Below are positions 3,592-45,271 of a stretch of DNA of 64,000 bases, one piece after another. Numbering within the stretch: position 1 is the stretch's first letter; every line of letters starts with the position of its first letter. This stretch comes from Balneolaceae bacterium (lineage in GTDB: Bacteria; Bacteroidota; Rhodothermia; Balneolales; Balneolaceae). The translations under genes and the position numbers were made by a program. Location of the stretch: positions 54,616-118,615 of the forward strand of contig DASVCW010000045.1 in the NCBI GenBank assembly GCA_036381435.1, given 5' to 3'. The notes beneath the pieces were generated by a model, which ran no database searches, was not told the origin of the DNA, and saw only the letters and a list, made by a program, of their open reading frames with translations.

Positions 3592-4626
3592 ATGGAAGAC
3601 GTGAAAAGCAGAGATTCCAAACTAAAACAATTTGATCATTCGTCGGGCGGGAGTAAAAAGCCTGTTCTTATCACTCAAAATCCCATTATGAAGGAGCTTG
3701 TCTCCAAAATAAAGCTGGTGGCGAAAACCAAAGCAACACTGCTTATCACCGGAGAGAACGGTACGGGAAAAGAAGTGCTGGCACGTTTGGTTCACTACTA
3801 CAGTTCCCGGAGTAAAAAGCCAATGGTTACTATTAATTGTGGAGCTATTCCGTCTGAATTGGTTGAGAGTGAGCTGTTTGGACATGAAAAAGGGGCTTTT
3901 ACCGGTGCTCAGGGCCAAAAGGAAGGCTGCTTTGAGTTAGCTCATAACGGTACTTTATTTTTAGATGAAGTTGGTGAAATGTCGAAAGCAATTCAGGTTA
4001 AGTTATTGCGGGCTGTAGAATTAGGATCATTTCGAAGAGTAGGCGGCAAAGAAGAAATTAACGTTGATGTAAGCCTTATCTCTGCTACAAATAAGATCTT
4101 AATTGACCAAGTAAAGTCGGGAGATTTTCGTGAAGATTTATTCTACCGGCTGAATGTTATTGAACTTTACGTGCCTCCTCTCCGCCATCGAAAGGAAGAT
4201 ATTCCTCTTCTGGTTTCCTATTTCCTCAATCATTTTACCGACTTGTATAATATAAATGAAATTGAATTTTCTGATGAATGCATGGCTATGTTTATGGCTT
4301 ACGACTGGCCGGGTAATGTACGCGAATTAAAAAATATTGTGGAACGCTGTGTAGTTTTATCGGGGGGAGAAAATATAGGTCCGAATTCTATTCCATCACG
4401 CATTCACCGGGGTGAAAATATTTACCCGGTTTGTAACGGTAACGGCCTTAATAATGTGATTCAAATTCCTATAGGTACCAGTTTAGAAGAAGTAGAACGA
4501 AGAGTTATTGACCAAACGCTTTATTCGGTTGATAATAATAAAACAGAAGCGGCCAAGATTTTAGGCTTCAGCAGAAAAACACTTCATAATAAGCTGGATA
4601 AATATGGACGAAGCAGTAATGCATGA
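3592..4626 (+). CDS. sigma-54-dependent enhancer-binding activator (AAA+ plus Fis HTH) with no N-terminal regulatory domain
   Basis: Walker A 'GENGTGKE', 'ESELFGHEKGAFTGA', Walker B 'LFLDEVGE', 'FREDLFYRLNV', 'WPGNVREL', C-terminal 'NKTEAAKILGFSRKTLHNKL'. Confidence 0.95.
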   Translation: MEDVKSRDSKLKQFDHSSGGSKKPVLITQNPIMKELVSKIKLVAKTKATLLITGENGTGKEVLARLVHYYSSRSKKPMVTINCGAIPSELVESELFGHEKGAFTGAQGQKEGCFELAHNGTLFLDEVGEMSKAIQVKLLRAVELGSFRRVGGKEEINVDVSLISATNKILIDQVKSGDFREDLFYRLNVIELYVPPLRHRKEDIPLLVSYFLNHFTDLYNINEIEFSDECMAMFMAYDWPGNVRELKNIVERCVVLSGGENIGPNSIPSRIHRGENIYPVCNGNGLNNVIQIPIGTSLEEVERRVIDQTLYSVDNNKTEAAKILGFSRKTLHNKLDKYGRSSNA

Positions 4627-11080: not shown

Positions 11081-11145
11081 AATGAATAATCGAATTTAAG
11101 GTTCAGAATAAGAAACTGATTTGTTTATATTTATTTTTTTGTCAA

Positions 11146-11315
11146 TCAACGTGAATTCGATACAAAAAATGGCTTCCAAAAGAGGTCTCAGCTTGGGGGT
11201 GTTCAGGTCGAAGTTCGCCACCCGGACACCTCGAATGGCACATTGTACGCTTTGCCATTCACTCCTGCCGGCTGACGGAAAGACCTTTCCTTCTCTGATC
11301 TCGACCTCACGTTAA
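11146..11315. mobile_element. family B-type terminal inverted repeats enclosing a different, highly structured cargo
   Basis: tcaacgtgaattcgata ... gatctcgacctcacgttaa flank a GC-rich multi-stem sequence. Confidence 0.55.
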
Positions 11316-11350
11316 CTATAAAACCGTTTCAGCTTATATCAATTTCATGT

Positions 11351-12388: not shown

Positions 12389-12469
12389 ATGTAATATTGC
12401 TAAGTGCACCAGTTCTCTTGTTGAAGATGGTTTTACTGAATTAAGAGCGTTAAAATGAATCTAACCGAA

Positions 12470-12654
12470 GGCCATCCTCCGGACCCCCTTCGAAGGGGAT
12501 GTAGGCTCCGCTGATGATATCAGCGGATTGGCTAATAGCATTAGTCACAAAAAAATTAGAATGACCAAAATAAGAATTATTGTAAATAATTCGGTTTAGC
12601 TCTCCCTTTTTCCAAATGAATCCCTACGGGAGAAGGGGGACTAAGGGGATGGCC
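12470..12654. repeat. family A modular palindromic element
   Basis: ggccatcc...ggatggcc ends with the same three internal hairpin modules as 4674..4849. Confidence 0.8.
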
Positions 12655-12690
12655 AAATCGCAAGTTCAACAACCATTTTTTACCCCTTAC

Positions 12691-15891: not shown

Positions 15892-16728
15892 TTACAGAAA
15901 TAATTTATTTCCATCAAATTCATAAGGCAGCTGCCAGCTCATTGAAAAGGGCAAGTGCTTGCATTCAATGGTTTTTCCATAAGATAAAATAGCCCCTTGC
16001 AGAATGGCATTTTTAAGCTGCCTTATGTTTCCGGGCCAACTGTATTTAAAGCATTCGCAAAGGGCCTGAGCCGATATACTAAGATTTTTCCATTCACTGT
16101 TTTTCTTTTTTATTTCATCAATAAAATGATCAATAAGAACGGGAATATCTTCTTTTCGTTCGCGCAGCGGCGGCAGCATAACCACCATGGGATCTAACAA
16201 ATCCAGTATTTTGTCCCATAGGGGGGTATCGAAAATTTTGTTAAAAGATTCCTGGTTGAATGAAATAACCAGCCGCGGAATATGCGTCGTATCATAGCGG
16301 AATAACTGCTTGCTGCCTTTCAAAAATGATTTAAGGATGTTGAGCATAAACGCCGGCGGTAATTCCGAGAATTGATCCAGATATAAAATCCCACCGCTGG
16401 CTTTCTCAATGGCATCATATTTCAGAGTGATGTGTTCTTCCTCAAACTGCAAGTGTCCCCAGAAAGCATCTTTGTAGCGCTCTTCATCTACATCTACACA
16501 GTAAAATGAATAAAAAGGGCCGTTTGCGCGGTAGCTGTTTTCATGAATGATATGTGCCAGACGCTTTTTGCCGGAGCCTATTTCACCTACTACAATGGCA
16601 TTTGAGCTCAGTTTTGCCAAGCTAAGAATTTTGTAGAAAATATCACGCATCAACACACTGCGTGATGATTTTTCAACATCGGTTAATTGAGATTCCTGGA
16701 GGTGATTATGTGAGGGAGAAGCAATCAT
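15892..16728 (-). CDS. degenerate sigma-54 activator-like AAA+ domain (pseudo-bEBP), no HTH
   Basis: Walker A 'GEIGSGKK', 'PPLRERKEDIP' and 'WPGNIRQLKN' present; GAFTGA absent, Walker B reads 'LYLDQ', no Fis HTH. Confidence 0.85.
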   Translation of the reverse strand: MIASPSHNHLQESQLTDVEKSSRSVLMRDIFYKILSLAKLSSNAIVVGEIGSGKKRLAHIIHENSYRANGPFYSFYCVDVDEERYKDAFWGHLQFEEEHITLKYDAIEKASGGILYLDQFSELPPAFMLNILKSFLKGSKQLFRYDTTHIPRLVISFNQESFNKIFDTPLWDKILDLLDPMVVMLPPLRERKEDIPVLIDHFIDEIKKKNSEWKNLSISAQALCECFKYSWPGNIRQLKNAILQGAILSYGKTIECKHLPFSMSWQLPYEFDGNKLFL

Positions 16729-18500: not shown

Positions 18501-18518
18501 TTACAACAAATGTGCCAA
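18501..18518 (-). promoter_or_regulatory. sigma-54 -24/-12 promoter for the wza operon
   Basis: TTGGCACATTTGTTGTAA on minus strand, about 60 bp before the wza ATG. Confidence 0.7.
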
Positions 18519-18980: not shown

Positions 18981-18998
18981 TTGGCATAGCTATTGTAC
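18981..18998 (+). promoter_or_regulatory. sigma-54 -24/-12 promoter for the wzc-wzy-wzx operon
   Basis: TTGGCATAGCTATTGTAC, 50 bp before the start at 19048. Confidence 0.7.
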
Positions 18999-24398: not shown

Positions 24399-25742
24399 AT
24401 GAAAATTGTAAAGTTTCAAGAAAACGTTATTAATGGCAATGATGAATCTACTTTGTCATGGGTTGAAACTAAAAAGGATGTTCAATTGATGGTTGAAGTA
24501 TTTACCACAGAAGAGAATTTTCAGGCACTGGCACCACACTGGAAAGACCTGGCAAGACGAGCGGATTCAAAGGTTTATATGTCTTATGAATGGGCCTGGA
24601 ACTGGTGGAAACGATTTGGAAGAAATAAAAAGCGCTCCTTATATCTGGTTACCATTTGGGATGGCACTAAATTAGTCGCCCTTGCGCCCTTTTATAAAGG
24701 TTATTCAAAATTAGGACCGCTTGTTATGGAAAGGCGTATGCAAATAATAGGCAGTGGCGGCAGTCCCAATGAACAAATTGGCTATACGGATGATTATGGA
24801 ATCAGTGACTTTCTCGATATTCTGGTTGATCAGGAATACCACGAAGAGGTGGCTGATTTACTGCCCGATATTTTAACGGCCGAATATCTTAATGTTGATG
24901 TTCTTACTTTTCACCAGGCTGATGATGAAAGTTTTGTGATGAAGCATCTCTATCCCAAGTTTCGTCAACTGGAGATTGACATGAGGGTAGAAAAAACCGA
25001 TACGTGTCCCTATATCGATTTAAGGGGTTACGATTCTATGAAAAGCTACATCAAGGACCAGAAATCGAACGCAAGACGCCGCATCAGGCAAACGCTTCGC
25101 GCTACTGGTCCGAATGATGAGTATGAGATTAAAGGAGCAGATACCTGGGCGGAGGTTGAAAAAGCTACTGATAAGTTAATAGAGCTTCATCAAAACCGGT
25201 GGAATGAAATCGGTTTTCCCGGAGTGTTTTATGATGAGCGTTTCATCCAGTTTTTCAAAGACATCATCAAAGATGCTTTCGAGAACGATAAACTCTGGTT
25301 TAAGCAGGCGATAGATGAACGCGGTGTTTGTGCTTCACGAATGATTCTTTTCTACAACGGCCGGTATTATGACTATATCAGCGGATTTGATGATAACCGG
25401 CCGTCTTCAAAGTATCGTCCTGGCATTGGGTTACTCGTTAGTTTGGTTCAGGAGGCCATCGAAAATGGTGTTGAAAAAATAGAGCTGCTGAGGGGAGAAG
25501 AAACCTACAAATACGATTTCACCTCTAACAATTTCAACAATTGGAAATTAACTATGCCGCTGAGGGAGCCAAACGGAAAAACCTTACTGAGCGTGAACAG
25601 ATCTGCTGCATTTTTATACAAGCACATCAACCGGGAGACAGAGTTATTAAAAGTACAGCAATCGCAGGTAGGCTTAGTCCGGATGCTGCCTGAATACCTA
25701 AAGTTTCGATGGAAGAGTGTAAAGATGAAGTTTGATTTATAG
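24399..25742 (+). CDS. GNAT (CelD/BcsL, Acetyltransf_6-like) protein 1
   Basis: 'YEWAWNWW', 'CPYIDL', 'HQNRW...G.PG.F', 'ELLRGEETYK'. Confidence 0.85.
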   Translation: MKIVKFQENVINGNDESTLSWVETKKDVQLMVEVFTTEENFQALAPHWKDLARRADSKVYMSYEWAWNWWKRFGRNKKRSLYLVTIWDGTKLVALAPFYKGYSKLGPLVMERRMQIIGSGGSPNEQIGYTDDYGISDFLDILVDQEYHEEVADLLPDILTAEYLNVDVLTFHQADDESFVMKHLYPKFRQLEIDMRVEKTDTCPYIDLRGYDSMKSYIKDQKSNARRRIRQTLRATGPNDEYEIKGADTWAEVEKATDKLIELHQNRWNEIGFPGVFYDERFIQFFKDIIKDAFENDKLWFKQAIDERGVCASRMILFYNGRYYDYISGFDDNRPSSKYRPGIGLLVSLVQEAIENGVEKIELLRGEETYKYDFTSNNFNNWKLTMPLREPNGKTLLSVNRSAAFLYKHINRETELLKVQQSQVGLVRMLPEYLKFRWKSVKMKFDL

Positions 25743-26140: not shown

Positions 26141-26271
26141 ATCAGCGGAGCACTCGTCCCCCTTCAAAGGGGGCACGGGGGATGACCCACTCTCAAACAA
26201 AACCCATGAACTGAATTATTGCAAATAATTCAGCAAAAAGTCCCCCTTAGCGAAGGGGGATTAGGGGGATT
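26141..26271. repeat. family A element, rearranged (left module inverted)
   Basis: atcagcggag...cccccttcaaaggggg..., ctgaattattgcaaataattcag, cccccttagcgaaggggg. Confidence 0.7.
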
Positions 26272-26458: not shown

Positions 26459-27649
26459 CTACTTCGTGGCATTCACCTTTTCAACGATAGGCTGTTGGTT
26501 TAGCTGCTCTTTTATACTTTGAGCAATGACAGAATAACCATAAGGGGTGGGATGATCATCATAATTAGCCGGATAGATTTTGGCTTTGCCAATTTGTTCT
26601 CTTAAGGCAGGAACAGGGCTGAGATAAGAGATTTGGTGAGCATCAAAAAACGCTTTGCTTATTTCAAGCAGCTCTCTCTCATTGGACAGTAAATTCTGGA
26701 CGGCCACATAATTGTTAACTTCAGTTGCGAAGGTTAAATATTCCGCAAAAACAAGCGCTTTTGAGGGAAGGAATACTACGTTAAATTTGATGCCATTCTG
26801 TTCACAAATTTTGTTCATTTTGTTTAACAAGTGTAAACTAATGCGCATACCCTCGCGAATTCGAATGTTATCCATATCCATTTTAATACCGCGGTGAACG
26901 GGGCGGAAGCCTTCGTTGATATTTTTTTCGGGAAGAATAAGACGGGTAAACTCTTCACTTTGAGAGGCTTTAAAAATACGTTCAACTTTTCTCTTTAAAT
27001 ATCCCAGTACCGGGCCGTGGACAGTTAACCGGTATAAAATACTGTTGTGTGAAAGGTAGGCGCGAAGATGTCCTAAAAACTGCTCATCCGGCTGAACGGG
27101 ATCGGCTTGGATATAAGAGTCAATTATATTTTCGCCGGAACGGTCAATATTATTAACCAGCGTACTATCTCTCAAATGATGCCAGTATTCTCTGTAATAA
27201 GCCATCTGGTAGGCTCCCATCAGATCATTTCCTAAATAAAAACCTACAATCACTCTTTCGGGATCTAGTTTCAGCGCTTTTGTCTTCAGCAGATAATAAT
27301 ATTGAACCGGGTTGTAGCTGCCCAGGCTTAAATTATAAACCTTCTGATCGGTAATTTGGCCAAGTACTTTAGGCCAGCTGCCTTCAGTCGTAGCATTATT
27401 GCCAAAGGTTTGCGAGTCGCCAATAGTTACGACATCGGCTGTATCGGGCACATAATAATTTCTGAAGCCCCACTTATCGTATCCCTCAACCTCTGATGAT
27501 ATCTTATGATCAAGAATGGGATCGTCAACAAGCTGCACCGTTAGATAATCGGCGGGATTCAGAAACAGGCGGCACATCCATTCACCCAAAACAAAAGCCA
27601 GCAGTAAGGAAATTGAAAGAACAAGAGTGTTAATAGTTAATTTTTTCAT
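26459..27649 (-). CDS. membrane-anchored SGNH/GDSL hydrolase (AlgX/AlgJ-like)
   Basis: N-terminal TM, 'IGDSQTFG', 'FYLGND', C-terminal 'YDDHP'. Confidence 0.8.
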   Translation of the reverse strand: MKKLTINTLVLSISLLLAFVLGEWMCRLFLNPADYLTVQLVDDPILDHKISSEVEGYDKWGFRNYYVPDTADVVTIGDSQTFGNNATTEGSWPKVLGQITDQKVYNLSLGSYNPVQYYYLLKTKALKLDPERVIVGFYLGNDLMGAYQMAYYREYWHHLRDSTLVNNIDRSGENIIDSYIQADPVQPDEQFLGHLRAYLSHNSILYRLTVHGPVLGYLKRKVERIFKASQSEEFTRLILPEKNINEGFRPVHRGIKMDMDNIRIREGMRISLHLLNKMNKICEQNGIKFNVVFLPSKALVFAEYLTFATEVNNYVAVQNLLSNERELLEISKAFFDAHQISYLSPVPALREQIGKAKIYPANYDDHPTPYGYSVIAQSIKEQLNQQPIVEKVNATK

Positions 27650-28725
27650 TTTGCTACAATATTTGTTGCTTGCATTTTATTAAATACGCTTTTGGCTATT
27701 AAGTAATAGCCCTTATCGTTGGGGTGATGGTTATAAGTAGGCGGATAAAGCTTTTTAGTATCGATTTTGCGCTGCATGAGGGGCAGGGCATCAACAAAAT
27801 CGATGTTGTGTTTCATAAAATATTTGATGCTTATTTCACGAATAATGCGCTCATTATTAAGCAAGTTATTGATGGCTTTGCTGTGGCGTAACTGGCGGTT
27901 ATTGTATAAATAATGGCAAAAAACCATCTCTTTAGTAGGAATGAAAAGTACCGTAAATTCAATGCCTTCCTGCTTGCTTCGCTCACTCATTTTTTTGAAA
28001 AGCTGTAGTGTTAAGCGCAGTCCTTCCTGAACTTTTTTGTTGCTGATTTCTGTCGCAACAGCAGTAGGAACGGGACGAAAAACTTCACTTATATTTTTTC
28101 CCGGCAGTACCAAGCTGGTATACATCTTGCTTTCTGAATGGTCTTCAGGTGCAAAATCGAGTCCTGAAGTTGCAGGATTATGAAATGCTAACCGGTATAA
28201 AATACTGTTTCCGGTCATCCAGTCGTGAAATTTGTTAAGCAAAGCACCGGCAGGCGTTTTAAAAACATTTGCTGTTAAATAGGTAAGCGTGTCACTCTTT
28301 GCATCCGCCAGCCAGGATGAAAATTCGGTATTCCTTAATTTTTCCCACGCCTGATGATTGTAAACCCTATCGAAAGTATCGAGGGGATCGTTACCGACGT
28401 AATAACCAACAATTATCTGATCGGGATTAAGTTCAAGAGCTTTGGTTTTGAAAAGGTGAAAATATTGAGCCGGCCCGTAACCGCTTAAAGAAAGATTATA
28501 GACCGATTTGTTACTCATATTCTGAAGCTGGGCGGGCCAGCTGCTTCCTATAGACGCGTTGATTCCAAATGTTTGGGAATCACCGATAGCAACGATATCG
28601 GCAGAATCGGGCACAAAACCATTGTCCACAGGATTCAAAATTATTCGAGACATGGTTTCCCCCAAAAACAAAGCTAATAAAATTGAAACAGCCAATAAGC
28701 TCCCGTTGATGAATTTTGATTTCAT
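27646..28725 (-). CDS. membrane-anchored SGNH/GDSL hydrolase, paralog
   Basis: N-terminal TM, 'IGDSQTFG', 'YYVGND', C-terminal 'YNHHP'. Confidence 0.8.
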   Translation of the reverse strand: MKSKFINGSLLAVSILLALFLGETMSRIILNPVDNGFVPDSADIVAIGDSQTFGINASIGSSWPAQLQNMSNKSVYNLSLSGYGPAQYFHLFKTKALELNPDQIIVGYYVGNDPLDTFDRVYNHQAWEKLRNTEFSSWLADAKSDTLTYLTANVFKTPAGALLNKFHDWMTGNSILYRLAFHNPATSGLDFAPEDHSESKMYTSLVLPGKNISEVFRPVPTAVATEISNKKVQEGLRLTLQLFKKMSERSKQEGIEFTVLFIPTKEMVFCHYLYNNRQLRHSKAINNLLNNERIIREISIKYFMKHNIDFVDALPLMQRKIDTKKLYPPTYNHHPNDKGYYLIAKSVFNKMQATNIVAK

Positions 28726-28770
28726 AATGATCTATTAAAGGTTAGAGCCCTTGAAAAATCTTATTGTGTT

Positions 28771-28872
28771 CATGCTGTCCGAAAGCTTTAGGATCAGCAT
28801 CTTCTCCCTTTTTTATAAAGCTATTGTACATATTGCAGATCCTGATCCTCCAATTGACAAATCAGGATGACA
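28771..28872. repeat. REP-like hairpin pair (gtcatcctga type)
   Basis: catgctgtcc...ggatcagcat and gatcctga...tcaggatgac. Confidence 0.45.
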
Positions 28873-28893
28873 AAGTTTTTCGCAGGCTTTTAG

Positions 28894-30753
28894 TTAATCA
28901 AGTTGAAATTCTTGTGTCCAGTCTATTTCCTCTTGCAGCTTTTTTTGCTCTCTTTTATCAAACAGGTAATTACCCATCACCAGGTAATCCATTTCGGTGC
29001 GCATAAAACATTGAAAGGCTTCGTCCGGAGTGCAGACAATCGGTTCACCCCGTACGTTAAAACTGGTATTTACCACCATTCCGCAACCTGTTTCTTTTTT
29101 AAATTCATTGATAAGGGACCAATATCTGGCATTCGATTCCTTATTCACGCTTTGCACCCGTGCCGAATAATCGATGTGGGTGATGGCAGGGATATCAGAC
29201 CGCTGGTGATACAGCTTGTCCAGCAAATCCATTTTGTCGTAGCCTTCGGGCAGGGGACAACGATGGCGTTCGGCTACCGGTGTAACTAAAAGCATGTAGG
29301 GTGAAGGCCGGTCGATGTCAAAATATTCCGTTATGTCTTCTTCGAGTACGGAAGGGGCAAACGGACGGAAACTTTCACGATATTTAATCTTAACATTCAT
29401 TTTTTTCTGCATTTCGGGGTTACGTGCATCGCCCAAAATGCTACGATTTCCTAATGCCCGGGGACCGTATTCCATTCGTCCCTGAAACCAACCGACTACA
29501 TTGCCATCTGCCAACAATTTTGCCGTTTCGGAGGCCAAATCATTAAAATTTTTGTGATAATTAAAAGGCGCTTCGTATTTACGCGCTACTTTTTTAATGG
29601 ATGAACCGTTGAAGCGGGGGCCCAGATAAGCACTTTTCATCTTATCAGGCTTGCCGTTCAATCTCCGGTCTTTTTTCATCCAGATATGCCAGGCAGAATA
29701 AGCCGCTCCAAGAGCTCCGCCGGCATCACCCGCAGCAGGTTGAATCCAGATATCTTCGAAAAGCCCTTCTTTTAAAAGCTTTCCGTTGGCCACACAATTT
29801 AAGGCCACTCCTCCGGCCAATACCAGGTAGGGGCTGCGGGTTAACTTTTTGGCTGTGCGGGCCAGTTTTAGCACGATCTCTTCTGTCACTTGTTGAATAG
29901 CCAGGGCCATGTTCATGTATTCCTGGGAGAGTTGACTCTCTTTTTGTCGAGGTGGGATACCGAATAGCTTTTCCCATTTTTTGTCATCAGCCATCCGTAA
30001 TCCGGTAGTAAATTTGAAATAATCCATATTGAAAAGCAGAGAGCCATCATCCCGGATATCCACTAACTCATCAATAATTTTTTGCCTGAACTCTTTGGTT
30101 TGGGCAGCATGAGGATTTCCATATGGAGCTAATCCCATCAGCTTGTATTCACCGCTATTGACTCTAAAACCGGTGTAGTAGGTAAAAGCCGAGTATAAAA
30201 GTCCCACAGAGTGAGGAAAATGTAGCTCTTTGAGTACTTTTATATCATTCCCCTTTCCATAGCCGATCATCGACGTGGCCCATTCGCCTACCCCATCGAT
30301 AGTGAGAATGGCGGCCTCCTGATAAGGAGACGGGTAAAAAGCGCTGGCAGCATGAGAAAGGTGATGCTCGGGAAACAACAGCGGTACGTCGCCGTCGCCC
30401 AATTTAGAAAGTTCGTCTTTGAGCATTTTTTTCATGAACAGCTTTTCCTTAATCCAAACCGGAATGGCGGACAAAAAGCTTTTGAGCCCTGAAGGAGCGA
30501 AGGCGTGGTAGGTTTCCAGCAGACGTTCGAACTTCAGGAATGGCTTGTCGTAAAAAGCAACGGCCGTCAGATCTTTGTAGTCAATACCCGCTTCTTCCAG
30601 CACGTATTTTGCCGCATTTTGTGGAAAAGACGAATCATGCTTTTTACGGGTGAAGCGTTCTTCGTGGGCCGCCGCGATTAGCTGTCCGTCAATTAAAATG
30701 GCAGCGGCACTGTCGTGATAGTAAGCAGAAATACCGAGTATGGTATCAGGCAT
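28894..30753 (-). CDS. O-carbamoyltransferase, NodU/CmcH/SxtI family
   Basis: 'LGISAYYHDSAA', 'EERFTRKKH', 'HHLSHAAS', 'GGVALNCVANG', 'GPRALGNRS', 'NTSFNVRGEPIV'. Confidence 0.95.
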   Translation of the reverse strand: MPDTILGISAYYHDSAAAILIDGQLIAAAHEERFTRKKHDSSFPQNAAKYVLEEAGIDYKDLTAVAFYDKPFLKFERLLETYHAFAPSGLKSFLSAIPVWIKEKLFMKKMLKDELSKLGDGDVPLLFPEHHLSHAASAFYPSPYQEAAILTIDGVGEWATSMIGYGKGNDIKVLKELHFPHSVGLLYSAFTYYTGFRVNSGEYKLMGLAPYGNPHAAQTKEFRQKIIDELVDIRDDGSLLFNMDYFKFTTGLRMADDKKWEKLFGIPPRQKESQLSQEYMNMALAIQQVTEEIVLKLARTAKKLTRSPYLVLAGGVALNCVANGKLLKEGLFEDIWIQPAAGDAGGALGAAYSAWHIWMKKDRRLNGKPDKMKSAYLGPRFNGSSIKKVARKYEAPFNYHKNFNDLASETAKLLADGNVVGWFQGRMEYGPRALGNRSILGDARNPEMQKKMNVKIKYRESFRPFAPSVLEEDITEYFDIDRPSPYMLLVTPVAERHRCPLPEGYDKMDLLDKLYHQRSDIPAITHIDYSARVQSVNKESNARYWSLINEFKKETGCGMVVNTSFNVRGEPIVCTPDEAFQCFMRTEMDYLVMGNYLFDKREQKKLQEEIDWTQEFQLD

Positions 30754-30775
30754 AGTACTTTTTAATGGTTAAATT

Positions 30776-30925
30776 CTAAAATACTGAGTAAATAAAGGGC
30801 GCTATCGCTGTTCCACTGGATAGAACGATGAGCACGCCAAAAAGCAGCAGCGTCAGGATAAGAGGGAGGAGCCAGAATTTTTTTCTTACTCTCAAAAATG
30901 ACCATAAGTCGGTTAGAAAGTTCAT
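30776..30925 (-). CDS. SxtK/DUF5989-like small membrane protein (49 aa), absent from the ORF track
   Basis: MNFLTDLWSFLRVRKKFWLLPLILTLLLFGVLIVLSSGTAIAPFIYSVF; the 'RKK.WL.P...APFIY..F' signature and its position beside a carbamoyltransferase. Confidence 0.85.
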   Translation of the reverse strand: MNFLTDLWSFLRVRKKFWLLPLILTLLLFGVLIVLSSGTAIAPFIYSVF

Positions 30926-30943
30926 AGTGCTTGATGAATAATT

Positions 30944-31357
30944 TTAAAATGGATTTTCTAAATCTTGAGCGGTATAGGTGTGATTACGAATTGAAAAAAC
31001 ACTGTCGCTCGTTTCGTTAAATTTCTTTAGTTGCATAGCATCTTTTCCAATCAGCCTTCGGAATAAACCAATAGGTATAACCAGCACCGCAAAAACAACA
31101 GACAGAATAATGGCCGACATTACGGTGCCAAGCAGAGCCGATAAGCCAAGCCAAAAAACGGCTATGGGATAAAATATTTTCGGATATACCATATTTATAA
31201 GCAAAACCGGTATAGCCAGCTTGTAGAAAAGCATCTGGCCGGTAAAAAAGCCAACCAACAGCAAAATTAGCACCATAGCCATACCGGTGTCGGTATTTTG
31301 TTTTGCCGAAATATCAGTTGAAAAAAAGCCAAAGTAGGTTGATTTACCCTTCTCCAT
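30944..31357 (-). CDS. SxtJ-family membrane protein
   Basis: Hydrophobic 137 aa with 'WLGLSALLG...PIGLFRRLIGKDAMQL...F'; adjacent to the SxtK-like gene and the carbamoyltransferase. Confidence 0.8.
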   Translation of the reverse strand: MEKGKSTYFGFFSTDISAKQNTDTGMAMVLILLLVGFFTGQMLFYKLAIPVLLINMVYPKIFYPIAVFWLGLSALLGTVMSAIILSVVFAVLVIPIGLFRRLIGKDAMQLKKFNETSDSVFSIRNHTYTAQDLENPF

Positions 31358-31398
31358 ATCTATAAAGTTTTAAGAAGTTGTCTCTCGTTTTGTTTCAG

Positions 31399-31416
31399 GT
31401 GCAATTAGTATGCCAA
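31399..31416 (-). promoter_or_regulatory. sigma-54 promoter for the sxtJ-sxtK-carbamoyltransferase-SGNH operon
   Basis: TTGGCATACTAATTGCAC, consensus match, 42 bp before the ATG. Confidence 0.8.
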
Positions 31417-31487: not shown

Positions 31488-31504
31488 TGTAACTTTTTTT
31501 CACA
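31488..31504. promoter_or_regulatory. candidate activator-binding site (TGT-N11-ACA)
   Basis: TGTAAC-TTTTT-TTCACA about 70-90 bp upstream of the 31399..31416 promoter. Confidence 0.4.
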
Positions 31505-32044: not shown

Positions 32045-32062
32045 TTGGCACGTTTGTTGCGA
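32045..32062 (+). promoter_or_regulatory. sigma-54 promoter for the deacetylase-GT4-GT4-GH9-GT2 operon
   Basis: TTGGCACGTTTGTTGCGA, consensus match. Confidence 0.8.
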
Positions 32063-34330: not shown

Positions 34331-35437
34331 TTGAGGACACTATTTTTAATTTCGAAGGGTATGAACAAACTATCAGATGAAGAGATCAGATTTTTGGAGG
34401 AAAGGGATTTATGTCCGCGAGTTTCATTATTAGAGGAGGAATTGAATACGCAACTGTTAGATGAACGATATTTACAAACTATTCCACTTATCAGGAAAAT
34501 GATTTATAAGCTATTGCCTGTCAACTTTGCCCTGATCATGGAGGCCTGGATTATTCACCGGCAGTATGATGCCGTTCTTTCGTATTACGAACGCGTAGGT
34601 TTGCCTTTCGCCTACTTACAAAAAATATTCGGCTCCGATACTCCTCACATTTTGCTCACTACCTGGCTTAGCTCAGATGCAAAAGTGTGGTTTCTAAAGC
34701 GGGTTCATGAAAAGCTATCAAAAATTGTGACCTGGTCATCTGTGCAGCGTGATTATGCCATTAACGAGATAGGCGTTTCACCCGAAAAAATTAAACTGCT
34801 AAAGCGCGGAACAGATCAAAAATTCTGGCGCCCGATGAAAGCAGAGACAGATATGATTTGCTCCGCTGGCATGGAGATGAGGGATTACCCCACAATGATA
34901 GAAGCACTAAAATCATTAGATATTCCTTGCCACATCGCCACCGGAAAAGCCCGGGGACAATTATTCGATACGGTTAAAAGGCTATACGAAATGGACGATA
35001 TCCCAAGGCACATTACCGTGGGCAGCAAATCGTATTTGCAAATGAGAGAGATGTATGCACGCAGCCGTTTTGTGGTGGTGCCGTTGCTTGAAACCGACAC
35101 CGATAACGGTTTAACAGTCATTCTGGAAGCTATGGCCATGGGCAAAGCGGTAATTTGTTCAGAAGTAGAGGGGCAAGTTGATGTGATTGAAGACGGCGTA
35201 ACCGGTGTTTATGTGCCACAGGGTGATGCAAAAGCACTTAGAAAGGCGATTCTTGATCTTTGGAATAATCCCGAAAAGGCTGAAAAAATGGGAAAAGCTG
35301 CTCGCGAACACATAGAAAAGGTTCATAATCTCGAGCAGTTTGTTGATGGAATTAAAGCAGAAATAACGAAAAAGACCAATGGCGTGCGCGAAACAGTCGG
35401 CAGCCTTGGTATAGAAAAAGCCAGTGTTGAAGTATGA
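34331..35437 (+). CDS. GT4 glycosyltransferase, tandem paralog (TTG start)
   Basis: Shares 'DMICSAGMEMRDYPT' and 'DNGLT.ILEAMAMGKAVICS' with 33125..34246. Confidence 0.9.
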   Translation: MRTLFLISKGMNKLSDEEIRFLEERDLCPRVSLLEEELNTQLLDERYLQTIPLIRKMIYKLLPVNFALIMEAWIIHRQYDAVLSYYERVGLPFAYLQKIFGSDTPHILLTTWLSSDAKVWFLKRVHEKLSKIVTWSSVQRDYAINEIGVSPEKIKLLKRGTDQKFWRPMKAETDMICSAGMEMRDYPTMIEALKSLDIPCHIATGKARGQLFDTVKRLYEMDDIPRHITVGSKSYLQMREMYARSRFVVVPLLETDTDNGLTVILEAMAMGKAVICSEVEGQVDVIEDGVTGVYVPQGDAKALRKAILDLWNNPEKAEKMGKAAREHIEKVHNLEQFVDGIKAEITKKTNGVRETVGSLGIEKASVEV

Positions 35438-37143
35438 AGAATATTATTATCGTATTGCTGCTTTGTTCTGTTTTAACGAGCTGTGGAGAGGACTCTTTTG
35501 AACCGTTCGTTGCCATAAATTTAGTGGGTTATAACTTGGACGATCCCAAAACAGCTTTTCTGGTTAATGCCCGTTCAGATTCTTTTGAAATTGTTAATGC
35601 AAGCAGTGAGGAAGTTTATTCAGGAAAAATTGCAGATCCGCTGCCGGTCGATTCTCTTTCAGGTGATCAGGTTTCGATCATTAATTTTTCGGATTTTCGC
35701 CAAAAGGGTGAATTTGTTATCCAAACCATGGGACCGGAAAAAATAAAATCACAGCCGTTTAGTATCGGGCAAAATTTATATAAAGATGTAGCTCTCACAA
35801 CTATCCAAAGTTATTATTATGCGCGCTGCGGTACTGCTATCGACAATGGAAATCCCTGGAAGCATCCTGTTTGTCACCTTGATGACGCCGTTTTTTGGGG
35901 CAATCCTGACCGGTATAAAAAAGTAACCGGCGGCTGGCATGATGCGGGGGACTATAACAAATTTTCAATCAACACTGCGCTTAGTGCCGGATTACTGCTG
36001 TACATTTACGAGATCAATTCGCAAGTATTCATTGATAATCAGTTTAACATACCCGAAGCAGATAACGGAACGCCGGATTTGCTTGACGAAGTTCGATGGG
36101 CGCTGGAATGGCTGATGAAAATGCAGAATAATGAAGGCGGGGTTTTTCATAAGGTTTCACAAAAGCATTGGGTGGGTGAATTTTTGCCGCAAAACGATCC
36201 CGAGGTGCGGTATATTTTTAAGGTAACCACCAATTCTACGGCTGGTTTTACGGCTGTTGCGGCTCTCGGTGCTCAACTTTTTGCACCCTTTGATACTGTT
36301 TTTGCAGATCAGCTTGCAAAGGCTGCTTTCAGAGGATGGCAGTATCTTCAGGAACATCCTGATATTCAGCCTTCTGGAGGGTTTGAAAATCCCCCGGGTG
36401 TCGTGGGCGGGGAGTATGCTGATGATCATGACAAGGATGTACGGCTTTGGGCCGCAATTGAGCTTTATAAACTGACGCAGGACGAAAAGTACCTGCAATA
36501 CTTCACCCGTACACTCGCTGATTACCAAATTGATAATTTGCCGCCTCTGAGCTGGAAAAATTTCGAAGTTCTCGCCTTAAGCGCCTTTTTAAATGCTGAT
36601 CTGCCCCGGGAATACCAAGAACAACAACAGCAAATTTATGATCTGCTCAACGGGCAGGCCAAACGGTTGCTAAAGCTTCATCAAGCAAATAATTATCGTC
36701 ACCTGCTGAAGGAAAATGAATTTTACTGGGGATCGAACAGCGTTAACCTGGCTTACGCTTTTGTTTTGATTCAGCTTTATGAGCAGAACGGAAATCAGGA
36801 ATATTATAGGGTGGCCTTAGATCAGTTGCATTATACGCTGGGAAGGAATCCTATGGATATTTCTTATGTAACAGGTATCGGGAATTCTTCGGTTCAAAAT
36901 CCCTACCACCAGTTTTCAGAAAAACTAGGCGTTGAAAAACCCGTTCCGGGAATGCTTGTCGGCGGTCCTAACAATCATCTTGATTTGAGGGGACATGATA
37001 TTTCCGACTATCCCGCTAAAAGTTATGAAGACCGTTTTAAAAACTATCTGGTTAATGAACCGGCTATAAATTATACGGCAATATTTGCCTATGTAGCAGG
37101 CTATTTTGCATCACCTCAAAAAGAATTTTTTACTAAACAATGA
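35434..37143 (+). CDS. GH9 endoglucanase-family lipoprotein with N-terminal Ig-like (CelD_N-type) domain
   Basis: Lipobox 'VLTSC'; 'GGWHDAGDY', 'LLDEVRWALEW', 'NEPAINYTA' catalytic motifs. Confidence 0.9.
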   Translation: MKNIIIVLLLCSVLTSCGEDSFEPFVAINLVGYNLDDPKTAFLVNARSDSFEIVNASSEEVYSGKIADPLPVDSLSGDQVSIINFSDFRQKGEFVIQTMGPEKIKSQPFSIGQNLYKDVALTTIQSYYYARCGTAIDNGNPWKHPVCHLDDAVFWGNPDRYKKVTGGWHDAGDYNKFSINTALSAGLLLYIYEINSQVFIDNQFNIPEADNGTPDLLDEVRWALEWLMKMQNNEGGVFHKVSQKHWVGEFLPQNDPEVRYIFKVTTNSTAGFTAVAALGAQLFAPFDTVFADQLAKAAFRGWQYLQEHPDIQPSGGFENPPGVVGGEYADDHDKDVRLWAAIELYKLTQDEKYLQYFTRTLADYQIDNLPPLSWKNFEVLALSAFLNADLPREYQEQQQQIYDLLNGQAKRLLKLHQANNYRHLLKENEFYWGSNSVNLAYAFVLIQLYEQNGNQEYYRVALDQLHYTLGRNPMDISYVTGIGNSSVQNPYHQFSEKLGVEKPVPGMLVGGPNNHLDLRGHDISDYPAKSYEDRFKNYLVNEPAINYTAIFAYVAGYFASPQKEFFTKQ

Positions 37144-38495: not shown

Positions 38496-39830
38496 ATGAT
38501 CACAAAAGAGATTAAGAATGTTAATGGGCATTCTAAAAAGATGGGGAACAAGGATTATGCTTATCAGATTATTTCGACTGAAGAGGAGTTTGAGGCGACA
38601 GAAGAAGAATGGACAGAATTAACTAATCATTCAGGATCAAAAATATTTCAAACATTCGACTGGCAGCGCATCTGGTGGAACTATTACGGGAAGGGGCTGG
38701 AACTAAATATAGTTCTGATACGAAAATATGAAAAGCTTATTGGCATTTTGCCAACTTTCATAGACTCTTATCAATCTTTTGGAAAGCCGGTTTATCGTTG
38801 CCTTCGTTTTATAGGATCGACTATAATGCAACCCAATGATACCAAAGTAGCCGGTTTTGTGGCCCAGGCCGGCTACTTAGATGTTATTGCCCGGTCCGGT
38901 TATGAAGATACTGTTATTAAATCGGTACAAGAATATTTGAATAATTATTGCAGTGAAATTCACCGAATTGCTTTTGATGAAGTTCCCGAGGACAGCCTGT
39001 TACACAGTGTGGTTGATAATTTAAAACAGAATCAGGCAAAATATTGGAATATATCGTTAAACAAGGCATCAGCTTGCCCTGCCATTCAGTTCCCCGAATC
39101 ATGGGATCAGTTTTTGAGCAACCTGAGCAGCAATGCAAGATATCAGATCAGGCGGGATGTAAAAAAAGTATATAACAGCAAAAAGAAGCTGTATGATTTA
39201 AAAATGATAGAGTCAGCTGAAGAAGTGATAACTGCTTATCAAACAATGGTTGATTATCATCAAAAGAGATGGAATAAAAGGGGGCTGCCGGGCAATTATG
39301 CAAACAAGAGCAGATATGATTTTAGAAAAGAGGTTTTAAAGCGGTTTTATGAGCTGGGATATTTACAGTTTCAGGTACTGACACCGAAAGATAAGCCTGA
39401 TGAATACCTGGCGCTGGACTTGCTTTTTAACTATAAGAATAAGATTTACTTAATTGAACGTGCTTTTAATGGGAGTGCCGACAAGAGTCATATGGGTTTT
39501 GGCAACATTCTTTTATACTCAGTGCTTAAGGAAGGAATGGATAACGGAGCAAAAGAATATGACTTTCTGCGTGGTACCGAAAGTTATAAGCTTCGCACAG
39601 CCAATCATATCGGCCAAAATTTACAGATCACTTTTGACCGGGCAAATAACTTTAAGTTCGGCAAAAAGTATTTGTTCGAATTAATACAGTTACGGATCGA
39701 GATAAAGCGGCGTTTTAACTGGGAAGTAGCAGCATTGCAGGCCCTGGCCCTGGAAAAAAATTATTTTAGGGCAGGAATTCAAATCGCTGTGACGCGATTT
39801 CTCCAAAAGTGGAAAAAAATTAATTCGTGA
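38496..39830 (+). CDS. GNAT (CelD/BcsL-like) protein 2
   Basis: 'FQTFDWQRIWW', 'SACPAI', 'HQKRW...GLPG', 'YDFLRGTESYK'. Confidence 0.85.
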   Translation: MITKEIKNVNGHSKKMGNKDYAYQIISTEEEFEATEEEWTELTNHSGSKIFQTFDWQRIWWNYYGKGLELNIVLIRKYEKLIGILPTFIDSYQSFGKPVYRCLRFIGSTIMQPNDTKVAGFVAQAGYLDVIARSGYEDTVIKSVQEYLNNYCSEIHRIAFDEVPEDSLLHSVVDNLKQNQAKYWNISLNKASACPAIQFPESWDQFLSNLSSNARYQIRRDVKKVYNSKKKLYDLKMIESAEEVITAYQTMVDYHQKRWNKRGLPGNYANKSRYDFRKEVLKRFYELGYLQFQVLTPKDKPDEYLALDLLFNYKNKIYLIERAFNGSADKSHMGFGNILLYSVLKEGMDNGAKEYDFLRGTESYKLRTANHIGQNLQITFDRANNFKFGKKYLFELIQLRIEIKRRFNWEVAALQALALEKNYFRAGIQIAVTRFLQKWKKINS

Positions 39831-39875
39831 AGAAGAAATTACGCATATATGAATAATGTAGAGTTACACGTCTGA

Positions 39876-40034
39876 GCCATCCCCCTGCGCCCCCTTCTAA
39901 GGGGGATGAATGCTCCGCTGATAGCATCAGCGGATTTCCTGTCCATAACGCCATTCAATTATAAAATTAGAATTAAATGGCTGAATTATTGAAAACAATT
40001 CAGCTTAATTCCCCTTTGAAGGGGGCGCAGGGGC
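39876..40034. repeat. family A modular palindromic element
   Basis: gccatccccctgcgcccccttctaaggggg, ccgctgatagcatcagcgg, ctgaattattgaaaacaattcag, cccctttgaaggggg. Confidence 0.8.
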
Positions 40035-40067
40035 TTTGGTATTCGTTTTACATCAGGGTTCGCTTCC

Positions 40068-40084
40068 TGTAAAAATATTGCACA
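40068..40084. promoter_or_regulatory. candidate activator-binding site (TGT-N11-ACA)
   Basis: TGTAAA-AATAT-TGCACA about 85-100 bp upstream of the 40167 promoter. Confidence 0.4.
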
Positions 40085-40166
40085 TAGCTGTTTATTTCTT
40101 CATATAAGATTTACCCATTATTCAAAATTTATTCAATCATCACCCTTGTCTTAACCTGAACTAGTC

Positions 40167-40184
40167 TTGGCATAGTTGTTGTGT
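40167..40184 (+). promoter_or_regulatory. sigma-54 promoter for the GT4-ATP-grasp x3-GNAT operon
   Basis: TTGGCATAGTTGTTGTGT, 46 bp before the ATG. Confidence 0.7.
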
Positions 40185-40229
40185 TCATTATAATAAAGAA
40201 GCCTTTAAAGAGAGACATCAAACATACAC

Positions 40230-41426
40230 ATGAAAATACTTCATCTCTTTCCATACCTCCCGTCGCCACCAACCTTTGGGGGAGCTTTACGGGTGTATCA
40301 TATTTTAAAGCACCTCAGTCAAAATCATGAAGTGACAGTGGGAGGATTCTGTGATTTTGGAGATATGGAATTATTCAAAGAAGATTTCCCGGGCGTGGAT
40401 GGTCACCTGTTTGTGCAACGGAGACGGGTAAATTACCGCCGGTTAATGCAGTTTTGTTCCCTTTTTACCCCTCACAGTTATTGGTATAACTGGGGGCAAT
40501 CACCAAAGCTGGAATCAAAGGTAAGAGCTCGTATCGCCGAAGAAGATTTCGATATCATTTTGGGTGAATTTGCATCTATGGGACATTTTGACCTTGAAAC
40601 GGATGCCATTCGAATTATGGATGCTCACAATATTGAATACGATAACTTTCGGAGAATGAGCACTCTCGAATGGTCCGGAATCAGAAAATGGTTTTACGAG
40701 CGGGAATCTGAGAAATGTTATTCCGAAGAGGTAAAGGCTTTTAAACGACATGATGCCATTTTTGCTACTTCAGAACGGGATAAAGCCATTATAGAAAAAA
40801 ATGCCCCTGGTATTCCCAAATTTGTGATTCCTAACGGGGTTGACACAAACTTTTTTTCAGCCAGTGAAACAGAGATTGAGCCGTTCTCGATGGTATTTAC
40901 CGGCGCCTTAAGTTATGTGCCGAACTATGACGGTATGATTTATTTTTTAGATGAAATTTTTCCCATCATTCAAAAAGTAGTTCCACAAGCAAAAGTTTAT
41001 ATCGTAGGCAGCAAGCCACCGGCCACATTGAAAAAATATGAGTCAAATTCGGTAACCGTTACCGGTTTTGTGGATGATGTTCGTCCCTATGTAGATCAGT
41101 CAAGCGTTTTTGTAGTTCCGCTAAGAATGGGCAGCGGCACACGCCTTAAAGTAGTTGAAGCGCTGTCGATGAAGAAACCGGTCGTTTCAACAAGTATAGG
41201 CTGCGAAGGCATAGATGTAAACGACAACGAGCATTTAATGGTGCGCGATGAACCCGCCGCTTTTGCTGAAGCGGTAATAAACCTTTTTAAAGATTCAAAA
41301 ACACGAAATAAACTGGTTGAAAATGGTTATCAACTGGTTAAACAAAAGTACGATTGGCAAGTAATAGGGCGATCGATAGACAACGCCTTTCAAGAGTTAA
41401 CATCAAACAAAAATATAATGGTATAA
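40230..41426 (+). CDS. GT4 glycosyltransferase
   Basis: 'PYLPSPPTFGGALRVY', 'VIPNGVD', 'FTGALSYVPN', 'GSGTRLKVVEALSMKKPVVST'. Confidence 0.92.
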   Translation: MKILHLFPYLPSPPTFGGALRVYHILKHLSQNHEVTVGGFCDFGDMELFKEDFPGVDGHLFVQRRRVNYRRLMQFCSLFTPHSYWYNWGQSPKLESKVRARIAEEDFDIILGEFASMGHFDLETDAIRIMDAHNIEYDNFRRMSTLEWSGIRKWFYERESEKCYSEEVKAFKRHDAIFATSERDKAIIEKNAPGIPKFVIPNGVDTNFFSASETEIEPFSMVFTGALSYVPNYDGMIYFLDEIFPIIQKVVPQAKVYIVGSKPPATLKKYESNSVTVTGFVDDVRPYVDQSSVFVVPLRMGSGTRLKVVEALSMKKPVVSTSIGCEGIDVNDNEHLMVRDEPAAFAEAVINLFKDSKTRNKLVENGYQLVKQKYDWQVIGRSIDNAFQELTSNKNIMV

Positions 41427-41430
41427 AATT

Positions 41431-42717
41431 ATGGCTATTTATTCGGGGGAATTTATAGATTTAGAGAATCCGGTTCTCGTAATCGGAGAAATGGGATTAG
41501 TGAGGAGCTTGGGAGAGATGGACCTGCCGCTTTTTTTGGGCACTGAAATCGAAAAAAATATTGCGGCGCATTCACGCTATGTAAAACAGCGCTTTTTCTT
41601 CTCGCCCTACGACAGTGAAGAATTTATTGATGAGCTGTGTGAACTGGGATATTATTTTAAGAAAAAACCGGTGATTTTGAGTGATGATGACCGGGCTATT
41701 TTAAATATTTCTGAAAACCGTAATAAATTGAAAGCTTATTATCTTTTCTTATATCCTGAGAGAAAAACGGTTAATAAGATACTGAATAAGCAGTACTTCA
41801 GTGAATTAGCCGAAAGGCACGAGCTTCCGGTTCCCGTATCTTATCAAACCACTTCTTCGCGCGATTTTAGGGAGGTGGCGTCTAAAATTAACTATCCATG
41901 TATTATCAAACCCACCCAGCGCCATTTTTGGTGGGGTGATGATTTTATTGAACAAATGGGACATTATCAAAAAGCCGTTAAATGTTCGGATCTTTATCAA
42001 TTTAAAGATACTTGTCAAAAAATATCGGAGGTTAATCCAAGTGTAGTAATTCAGGAATATGTTGAAGGAGATGACAAACAGCACTATAGCGCCAACTTAT
42101 TTGTGGATGAAAGAGGGAAGCTGCAAGGGTACTATATCGCCCGCAAAAAGCGGATTTATCCCATAAAAGCAGGTACCGGAAGCTATGTGGAAACGGTGGT
42201 TAATCCTGCAGTGCTTGAAATTTCAATGAAGATAGTAGAAAAGCTGGGGCTCAGGGGGCTTGTAAACATACAGTTTAAACAAGACAGTCGAACGGCAGAA
42301 TATAAGCTGTTAGAAATTCACGCCCGTAATAGCCTCTGGAGCCTTCTTGGAGCCAAGGCAGGAGCTAACTTGGCCTATCTTTATTATAACTATTTGGTAT
42401 ATGGGCTGCATCACGATAACGTCATTAAGGCCAGGCCAAACATTAAATATTTTAATCTGTCAAAAGATGTTCGGGCCTTACTGGCCTACCGGAATGAAGG
42501 GAAACTGACGGTGGCAGAATGGTGGCAGTCGCTACGGGGGGAGCGGATATTCGCAGCTTTTTCATGGAAAGATCCGCTGCCGGCACTGTTCAAAATTTGG
42601 GACATCGTTTTGAATAGTCTAAAACGAGCTGTTAAGAAAAAGCTGCCGCAACCCAAAAGGCTAAAGCATGAAAGCTTTTTAACACGGAACGCTAGTTTTT
42701 TAACCAGAATATTTTAG
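41431..42717 (+). CDS. ATP-grasp carboxylate-amine ligase 1 (D-aspartate-ligase-like)
   Basis: 'SDDD', 'LNKQYF', 'YPCIIKP', 'VVIQEYVEG', 'NIQFKQD', 'LLEIHAR'. Confidence 0.85.
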   Translation: MAIYSGEFIDLENPVLVIGEMGLVRSLGEMDLPLFLGTEIEKNIAAHSRYVKQRFFFSPYDSEEFIDELCELGYYFKKKPVILSDDDRAILNISENRNKLKAYYLFLYPERKTVNKILNKQYFSELAERHELPVPVSYQTTSSRDFREVASKINYPCIIKPTQRHFWWGDDFIEQMGHYQKAVKCSDLYQFKDTCQKISEVNPSVVIQEYVEGDDKQHYSANLFVDERGKLQGYYIARKKRIYPIKAGTGSYVETVVNPAVLEISMKIVEKLGLRGLVNIQFKQDSRTAEYKLLEIHARNSLWSLLGAKAGANLAYLYYNYLVYGLHHDNVIKARPNIKYFNLSKDVRALLAYRNEGKLTVAEWWQSLRGERIFAAFSWKDPLPALFKIWDIVLNSLKRAVKKKLPQPKRLKHESFLTRNASFLTRIF

Positions 42718-42721
42718 TGTT

Positions 42722-43936: not shown

Positions 43937-43991
43937 GTCAACATTAAAGAGAAATTTAAAAGATAATCACAATTACAAATCAGCATATATA

Positions 43992-45158: not shown

Positions 45159-45271
45159 CTTACTGTTAATACTTTAGTTATATTATTTTTTAAAGCGGGT
45201 ATATACGTTCAAAAATACAACATCAAGATGAGTTTTAGTTCAGGAATTCAGAAAAATAGGAAAGTCTGACA

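Follow-up and report, generated by a model that had tools for sequence, protein, structure and literature searches.

A gene set resembling part of the saxitoxin cluster lies within a 64,000-nucleotide stretch of DNA from Balneolaceae bacterium (GenBank assembly GCA_036381435.1, contig DASVCW010000045.1, positions 54,616 to 118,615 of the forward strand), which is referred to here as the window. It comprises five co-oriented open reading frames (ORFs) on the minus strand, at 26459-31357 (to 31415 if the promoter is included), which encode in order an SxtJ-like membrane protein, a DUF5989/SxtK microprotein, a carbamoyltransferase (CT) and two SGNH proteins, here designated SGNH-A and SGNH-B. A preliminary description of this DNA had taken the five genes for a single unit, and in the present, purely computational analysis all five ORFs were indeed found as described and tightly packed: the first four genes are separated by 18, 22 and 168 bp, while the stop of the SGNH-A gene and the start of the SGNH-B gene overlap by 4 bp.

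The CT (619 aa; 28894..30753, minus strand) is an O-carbamoyltransferase of the TobZ/NodU/CmcH type, with both the Carbam_trans_N and the Carbam_trans_C domains (PF02543, E = 2.4e-93, and PF16861, E = 4.8e-75) and with no transmembrane or hydrophobic segment. It gives end-to-end phmmer matches to the solved enzymes VtdB, NovN, GdmN and TobZ (1e-78 to 1e-89), shares about 30% identity with the characterised soluble enzymes, and contains the motifs HHxSHAASAF, GDAGG, GPRALGNRSI and RPFAP. The SxtJ-like protein (137 aa; 30944..31357, minus strand) matches PF19588 with E = 1e-6 and 29.8 bits, against a gathering score of 24.4, and the SxtJ family assembled by jackhmmer from 59 loci takes in the window copy. 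It has some three to four hydrophobic helices and a basic tail that is presumably cytoplasmic; the conserved residues of the family are few, being mostly proline, glycine and tryptophan, together with D106 and S119 in the basic tail.

Natural fusions of these two proteins, of about 730-760 aa and with SxtJ at the C-terminus of the CT, form around 100 protein clusters, mostly from Verrucomicrobiota (Chthoniobacterales). They were found in three of the genome loci described below (L047, 7679-9988; L059, 7586-9889; L061, 7709-9988) and as proteins P0189-P0290, and are often annotated merely as 'carbamoyltransferase'. The fusions place the N-terminus of SxtJ in the cytoplasm and argue for a physical association between SxtJ and the CT. 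In a model built from an alignment of 99 natural fusions (pLDDT 82), the CT part superposes on TobZ (TMt 0.82) and GdmN (TMt 0.72), and the SxtJ part forms three confident helices; from this fused relative, the CT fold has two domains as in TobZ, one Kae1-like and one YrdC-like. A first fusion alignment was dropped, since unfused CT and SxtJ rows had been mixed in and MAFFT had scattered the short rows. An apparent CT-DUF5989 fusion, P0291, was also rejected as a read-through of frameshifted high-GC sequence.

The DUF5989/SxtK-like microprotein (49 aa; 30776..30925, minus strand) matches PF19451 over its full length (E = 1.8e-24). It consists of a basic N-terminus (RVRKK), a single transmembrane helix and the C-terminal sequence FIYSVF (30779-30796, minus strand), which includes Tyr46; from the basic N-terminus and the single helix, the positive-inside rule predicts that the N-terminus lies inside and the C-terminus outside. 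The pattern F-[IV]-Y-[TSA]-[LIV]-F stands exactly at the C-terminus in all 120 database homologues and in 65 of the 70 locus copies, and the invariant positions of the family are Y46, F44, P43, R14, W18 and P21. The protein is 78-90% identical between the window and Desulfovibrionales, Thermodesulfobacteriota and Krumholzibacteria, the matches being named either DUF5989 or SxtK in NCBI and UniRef, and the family amounts to at least 2,580 clusters at 90% identity. On a public metagenome contig that is identical over this region, the gene caller skipped the DUF5989 gene and called instead a 47-aa ORF in another frame (30762-30905, minus strand; L001 1157-1300), so that DUF5989 is likely to be under-annotated elsewhere too.

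FXYXXF has been identified as the acyl-shuttle motif of DltX and of the C-termini of bacterial MBOAT proteins (PMC12148441). In the Dlt system, the MBOAT protein DltB loads D-alanine on the tyrosine of DltX, a protein of about 48 aa that ends in FIYNEF, and DltX hands the D-alanine to a serine of the membrane-anchored SGNH protein DltD; the MBOAT protein PatA acetylates a tyrosine in its own tail, FIYANF, and that peptide serves PatB as acetyl donor (PMC12148441, PMC13653941, PMC5541007). Among 9,697 ORFs of the fetched loci and the window, those ending in FxYxxF were 65 DUF5989 proteins, two MBOATs (both confirmed by Pfam, and each encoded beside an AlgX-like gene) and one spurious ORF of 39 aa.

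SGNH-A (359 aa; 27646..28725, minus strand) has an N-terminal signal-anchor and the residues Ser50 (GDS), Gly82, Asn112-Asp113 and His334, and SGNH-B (396 aa; 26459..27649, minus strand) has an anchor helix at residues 2-29 and then Ser79, Asn141-Asp142 and Asp364-x-His366. In both, a hydrophobic helix comes after a basic N-terminus, and both carry the family-invariant GDS, GxND and His blocks. Their Pfam matches are weak, one match of SGNH-A to Lipase_GDSL lying barely at the cut-off, and their ALGX scores (18.7 and 13.7 bits) fall below the gathering score of 26.5. The family found here mostly has the D-x-H arrangement known from AlgJ and AlgX, where classical SGNH hydrolases have D-x-x-H. 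In SGNH-B the glycine of block II, which most family members keep in its canonical form, is replaced by Ser111; NgPatB likewise has a serine at this position, and the substitution has been noted for the transferases PatB and OatA. An AlphaFold2 model of SGNH-B (pLDDT 91.5, pTM 0.90) shows the SGNH fold with the N-terminal helix at residues 2-29, and its best solved match in Foldseek is CgnD of the crocagin pathway (PDB 8a2n; TM 0.47/0.60), followed by small GDSL esterases. The crocagin cluster also encodes a carbamoyltransferase, CgnI, and CgnD has been reported as a very slow hydrolase. The pairing of an SGNH protein with a carbamoyltransferase may recur in that cluster; the structural match is moderate and is taken only as a lead.

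The unit is embedded in a large Wzx/Wzy-type polysaccharide locus, which extends from about 3.6 to 47.9 kb of the window, as the preliminary description had proposed in placing it in a polysaccharide context. For export and assembly the locus encodes Wzz/GNVR, a tyrosine-kinase-like ATPase, Wzy, Wzx, Poly_export and a WecA-like primer; its transferases include glycosyltransferases of the GT1 and GT2 families and WecG, and there are in addition a deacetylase, three FemAB-like GNATs, three ATP-grasp enzymes, a sulfotransferase, and glycoside hydrolases of the GH5, GH9 and GH18 families. On one side of the five genes lies the Wzx/Wzy/GNAT operon, and on the other the deacetylase/glycosyltransferase operon.

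The same description had assigned the unit its own sigma-54 promoter, and an exact match to the consensus TGGCAT-N5-TTGCA, the predicted sigma-54-type promoter TGGCATACTAATTGCA (31400..31415, minus strand; -24 GG, -12 GC), was found 42 nt 5' of the ATG of the sxtJ-like gene. In the nearest relative of the locus (L002, whose CT is 84% identical), the same 16-mer stands 41 nt 5' of the orthologous gene. When the two spacers are aligned, the promoter falls within a block of 20 identical nucleotides, and the only other conserved block is the element TGTGAAAAAAAGTTACA (TGT-N11-ACA; 31488..31504, minus strand), about 75 nt upstream of the promoter, the remainder of the spacer having diverged. TGTGAAAAAAAGTTACA is a candidate site for an enhancer-binding protein, and the pair looks like the phylogenetic footprint of a sigma-54 promoter with its activator site. 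TGTGAAAAAAAGTTACA is present in a single copy in the window, and the other promoters of the window lack it. A terminator-like hairpin followed by a T-run (26241..26260, minus strand), identified by consensus scan only, lies about 200 nt past the SGNH-B gene. No RNA runs that hold the window sequence were found, the matches being confined to DNA metagenome runs.

Further sigma-54-type sites, exact or with one mismatch, are located at 18502-18517 (minus strand), 18982-18997 (plus), 32046-32061 (plus) and 47922-47937 (minus), where they precede other operons of the locus, namely those of Poly_export, Wzz, the deacetylase and glycosyltransferases, and WecG. As judged from these sites, the whole polysaccharide locus looks like one sigma-54 regulon. 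A complete sigma-54 enhancer-binding protein with an AAA+ domain and HTH_8 (PF00158, E = 4.6e-68; PF02954), encoded at 3592..4626 on the plus strand, is a candidate regulator of the locus and of this operon; a second, truncated Sigma54_activat protein is encoded at 15892-16728. In L002 a GH5 gene stands between the module and the second SGNH gene, which has an exact sigma-54-type site to itself, TGGCATACATATTGCA (14186-14201, plus strand); this suggests co-regulation despite the separation.

The neighbourhood survey of DUF5989 that the preliminary description had recommended was carried out with one genome per species; it yielded 64 DUF5989 loci from about 15 phyla, in which ORFs were called and searched with profiles built for the analysis. 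DUF5989 is flanked by both SxtJ and CT in 58 of the 64 loci, the exceptions being mostly contig ends and frameshifted assemblies; taken singly, SxtJ is adjacent in 59 and CT is linked in 60. The order J-K-CT was found in 39 loci, CT-J-K in 12 (three of them with CT-SxtJ fusions) and K-J-CT in four. When all other genes within 7 kb were clustered, SGNH-like proteins emerged as the sole recurrent family (36 of 67 loci, the next family reaching eight). An SGNH gene was detected in 31 of the 64 loci with a strict hidden Markov model and in 41 with a broader one, with every match within 3 kb of the triad and none further out in the 10-kb flanks; in L035 and L041 it stands between sxtJ and sxtK. Apart from this the neighbours of the triad are heterogeneous, with polysaccharide genes (Bac_transf, Asn_synthase, Wzy, GT2, Acetyltransf_6) as the commonest theme, yet a minority. 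Given such varied flanks and its recurrence, the unit behaves as a portable cassette, and the portability claimed for it earlier is thus upheld.

The components differ greatly in how far they have diverged. Mean pairwise identity across the loci is 59% for the CT, 61% for DUF5989, 31% for SxtJ and 20% for the SGNH proteins. Such a gradient fits a CT whose partner does not vary, the choice of the final acceptor being left to the variable SGNH protein; more variation would be expected of a CT that had to recognise the differing sugars of unrelated loci.

The unit is a member of the sxtIJKL-type gene set, a parallel already drawn in the preliminary description and supported by the presence of all four families: a NodU/CmcH-type CT, SxtJ (PF19588), SxtK (DUF5989) and a GDSL/SGNH protein, SxtL being likened by family only. 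Two cyanobacterial loci of the survey, L067 and L068, are arranged as CT-J-K-SGNH, just like sxtI-J-K-L, whereas the window unit has the order J-K-CT-SGNH-SGNH and two SGNH paralogues. It differs further from sxt in belonging to a non-cyanobacterial soil bacterium, in lying within a Wzx/Wzy locus with a sigma-54-type promoter, and in having no toxin genes about it. In the literature SxtI, J and K are taken to work together, J and K having been left uncharacterised since the saxitoxin cluster was first described, and sxtJ/K/L-like genes are also co-clustered in a second cyanobacterial cluster, that of suomilide. The papers searched, which did not take in the DltX paper of Schultz et al. (2023), contain no mechanism for SxtJ or SxtK and no mention of DUF5989, and none of them links carbamoyltransferases with SGNH relays.

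In mechanism, it is probable that the unit represents a new variant of the tyrosine-shuttle/SGNH relays. Its likeness to Dlt lies in a single-helix microprotein of about 49 aa with its N-terminus predicted to lie inside and a FIYxxF end bearing an invariant tyrosine, in a membrane-anchored extracytoplasmic SGNH partner, and in a cytoplasmic adenylate-forming activating enzyme. It differs from Dlt in that it lacks an MBOAT and a carrier protein, would transfer a carbamoyl group rather than form an aminoacyl ester, and includes SxtJ, which has no Dlt counterpart; its SGNH proteins also stand outside the DltD family by Pfam and by Foldseek rank. With PatA/PatB, AlgI/J/F/X and OatA it would share the principle that the tyrosine of an FXYXXF tail (or of an AT3 protein) passes an acyl group to an SGNH serine and an exported polymer is modified, and AlgJ and AlgX, two SGNH-type proteins in series, may offer a parallel for SGNH-A and SGNH-B. 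The unit differs from these systems, MBOAT-SGNH as well as AT3-SGNH, in having no MBOAT, AT3 or acetyl-CoA donor and in bearing the motif on a free microprotein, not on a transferase. Since the unit lacks the MBOAT by which the MBOAT-SGNH class is defined, it falls outside that class. The analogy with AlgI/J/X put forward in the preliminary description is the looser one: the resemblance to AlgI/J/F/X is limited to the D-x-H arrangement, and Dlt, through DltX, is the closer analogue because no MBOAT-like conduit is present. The characterised enzymes TobZ, NodU, CmcH, GdmN and NovN, for their part, are soluble, stand-alone and active on small molecules or Nod factors, while the CT clade of the window is tied to a pair of membrane proteins, with occasional fusion to SxtJ, and keeps about 60% identity across phyla.

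It is proposed, as the best-supported reading but one on which our own judgement is evenly divided, that the exported polysaccharide of the surrounding Wzx/Wzy locus is O-carbamoylated by a trans-membrane relay which this operon encodes. From the anatomy of the operon, its conservation and the tyrosine motif, we infer the following chemical steps. The cytoplasmic CT would make carbamoyl-AMP from carbamoyl phosphate and ATP, with SxtJ keeping the CT at the membrane. The carbamoyl group would then be loaded, with the participation of SxtJ, onto Tyr46 of the microprotein, whose C-terminal tail is predicted to lie at the outer membrane face. The anchored periplasmic SGNH enzymes would accept the group on their catalytic serines (Ser50 and Ser79) and deliver it to hydroxyl groups of the polymer; the paralogues would act either in series or at different positions. 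For the crossing of the bilayer the sole candidate conduit would be SxtJ, possibly as an oligomer with DUF5989.

This crossing is the weakest link of the scheme, for the unit encodes no known kind of trans-bilayer acyl conduit, and it heads a series of points that weigh against the relay. No conserved histidine, tyrosine or other catalytic-looking residue was found in the membrane part of SxtJ in the family alignment. SGNH-A, although it keeps the block II glycine, has Asn332 where the acid of the triad usually sits, and DltD, PatB and AlgX are absent from the Foldseek top 50 for SGNH-B, whose nearest solved structures are esterases and CgnD. An SGNH gene could not be detected within 10 kb in 23 of the 64 loci, among them Desulfovibrionaceae triads beside gatB. 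Conversely, in a reverse look-up of four relatives of SGNH-A, those in L002 and L005 lay in the module and those in L003 and L004 (10001-11125), which are 31-36% identical to the SGNH proteins of the window, had no CT, SxtJ or DUF5989 within 10 kb, so the SGNH family is not obligately bound to the triad. (The triad-free SGNH genes of L003 and L004 adjoin a GT1 gene and trp genes, and L003 also has a Wzx flippase and a sulfotransferase.) The divergence of the CT was not significantly correlated with that of the SGNH proteins (Spearman 0.11, Mantel p = 0.085), a weak test, given SGNH alignments close to noise. To our knowledge, every characterised enzyme of the TobZ family carbamoylates its final acceptor directly and in the cytoplasm, and we know of no precedent for O-carbamoyl-tyrosine or O-carbamoyl-serine as transfer intermediates, nor of any account of the chemistry of the window polysaccharide, its carbamoyl groups included.

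Nor is homology to DltX demonstrable. DUF5989 and DltX are of similar length (49 and 48 aa) and resemble each other in an N-terminal L-x-[DE]-[IL]-W-S pattern, and hhalign aligns them colinearly over 44 columns (E = 0.0019, probability 14%). BLASTP, however, gave no alignment between the two, and hmmscan gave no match of DUF5989 to PF12459, a profile that DltX of B. thuringiensis, used as a control, matches at 2e-21. Comparison of DUF5989 with the C-terminal segments of two MBOATs by BLASTP and hhalign revealed no convincing homology, and a phmmer search of the PDB returned only chance matches to transmembrane segments. The claim made here is for that reason one of common motif and architecture, not of common descent. 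What can be said of the trans-envelope relay envisaged in the preliminary description is that the FXYXXF tail, the recurrence of SGNH genes and the CT-SxtJ fusions lend it support, and that the lack of an MBOAT-like conduit and the many loci without SGNH hold it at the level of inference.

In another reading, SxtJ and DUF5989 would simply anchor and orient the CT on the inner leaflet. Carbamoylation would then take place before flipping, directly on the undecaprenyl-diphosphate-linked repeat unit or on a nucleotide sugar, and the SGNH proteins would be independent periplasmic esterases that, for example, remove acetyl or carbamoyl groups. We regard this as rather unlikely, though it is the chief rival. 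It is in keeping with it that the CT has both complete TobZ-type half-sites and that its characterised relatives work without partners; the fusions fit a tether as well; SxtJ lacks catalytic-looking residues; about a third of the triads have no SGNH gene nearby; the nearest solved SGNH structures are hydrolases; and SxtL was once proposed in the literature as a possible decarbamoylase. For a mere anchor, on the other hand, there is no need of a tyrosine motif kept invariant at the periplasmic end, or of an identity of some 60-80% across phyla, and FXYXXF is in our ORF set otherwise confined to MBOATs. SGNH genes are moreover the sole recurrent neighbour of the triad and can stand between sxtJ and sxtK, and a CT with 59% identity is far more conserved than would be expected of an enzyme that recognises the varied sugars of unrelated loci.

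An alternative that we consider improbable is that the relay is real but serves some other acceptor, such as lipopolysaccharide, peptidoglycan, a lipid or a secreted small molecule, and that a self-contained cassette happened to land in this locus. The heterogeneous neighbours of the module in the 64 genomes, with polysaccharide genes recurring only in a minority, would be explained in this way, as would the cyanobacterial versions in small-molecule clusters and an operon with its own predicted promoter and terminator; against it, the operon is set between the Wzx/Wzy/GNAT and the deacetylase/glycosyltransferase operons and has the same style of sigma-54-type promoter, and L002 keeps the module beside polysaccharide genes. 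Most improbable of all is that the tyrosine tail of DUF5989 shuttles a different acyl group from an MBOAT encoded elsewhere, with the CT as a co-located tailoring enzyme: an MBOAT does adjoin the triad in five of the 64 loci (L057, 8161-9567; L063, 5644-7107; L044, 1-1350; L007, 4896-6365; L042, 12039-13397), and those of L044, L057 and L063, unlike the other two, have no FXYXXF tail of their own and so resemble DltB, a hint that DUF5989 may work for an MBOAT as well, but 59 loci have none, no MBOAT or AT3 match was found among the scanned window ORFs of at least 110 aa (nearly all such ORFs), DUF5989 is linked to a CT in 60 of 64 loci, and the two are equally and unusually conserved.

Other features of the window bear on the polysaccharide rather than on the five-gene unit. 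Three ATP-grasp paralogues (41431-45158) are interleaved with the three FemAB-like GNATs (Acetyltransf_6), the genes concerned lying at 38496-46627 and 24399-25742 on the plus strand, and this suggests that the polysaccharide has amino-acid or peptide side groups too. The edge of the locus (5069-13899, minus strand) encodes a GH2-like/DUF4962 protein, two GH5 enzymes, a sulfotransferase and a GH18 enzyme, and a GH9 enzyme is encoded inside the locus at 35434-37143; the run of glycoside hydrolases, the sulfotransferase and the GH9 enzyme point to a sulfated, trimmed glycan. Further along, at 54971-63540 on the plus strand, there is a type II/IV secretion-like cluster with two T2SSE ATPases, a cNMP-binding protein, an unannotated protein of 583 aa and a secretin that has a C-terminal SPOR domain.

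Extended to the family as a whole, the proposed relay leads to a broader suggestion, which we hold a shade more tentatively. The combination of CT, SxtJ, DUF5989/SxtK and SGNH would constitute a third and very widespread route of decoration for extracytoplasmic polymers, independent of MBOAT and AT3 proteins and running through O-carbamoyl-tyrosine to interchangeable SGNH proteins, of which the sxtI-J-K-L genes of the cyanobacterial toxin clusters would be a recruited copy. The reading of the tyrosine motif turns the question of what SxtJ and SxtK do into one that can be tested at a single residue. The ease with which gene callers overlook the 49-aa gene is in itself a problem of annotation. 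If the proposal is true, the logic of tyrosine shuttle and SGNH partner, lately worked out for D-alanylation and O-acetylation, would extend to a new chemical group and to an MBOAT-free loading machine that spans thousands of protein clusters in at least 15 phyla, and O-carbamoylation of surface polysaccharides would be a common modification that has so far been overlooked.

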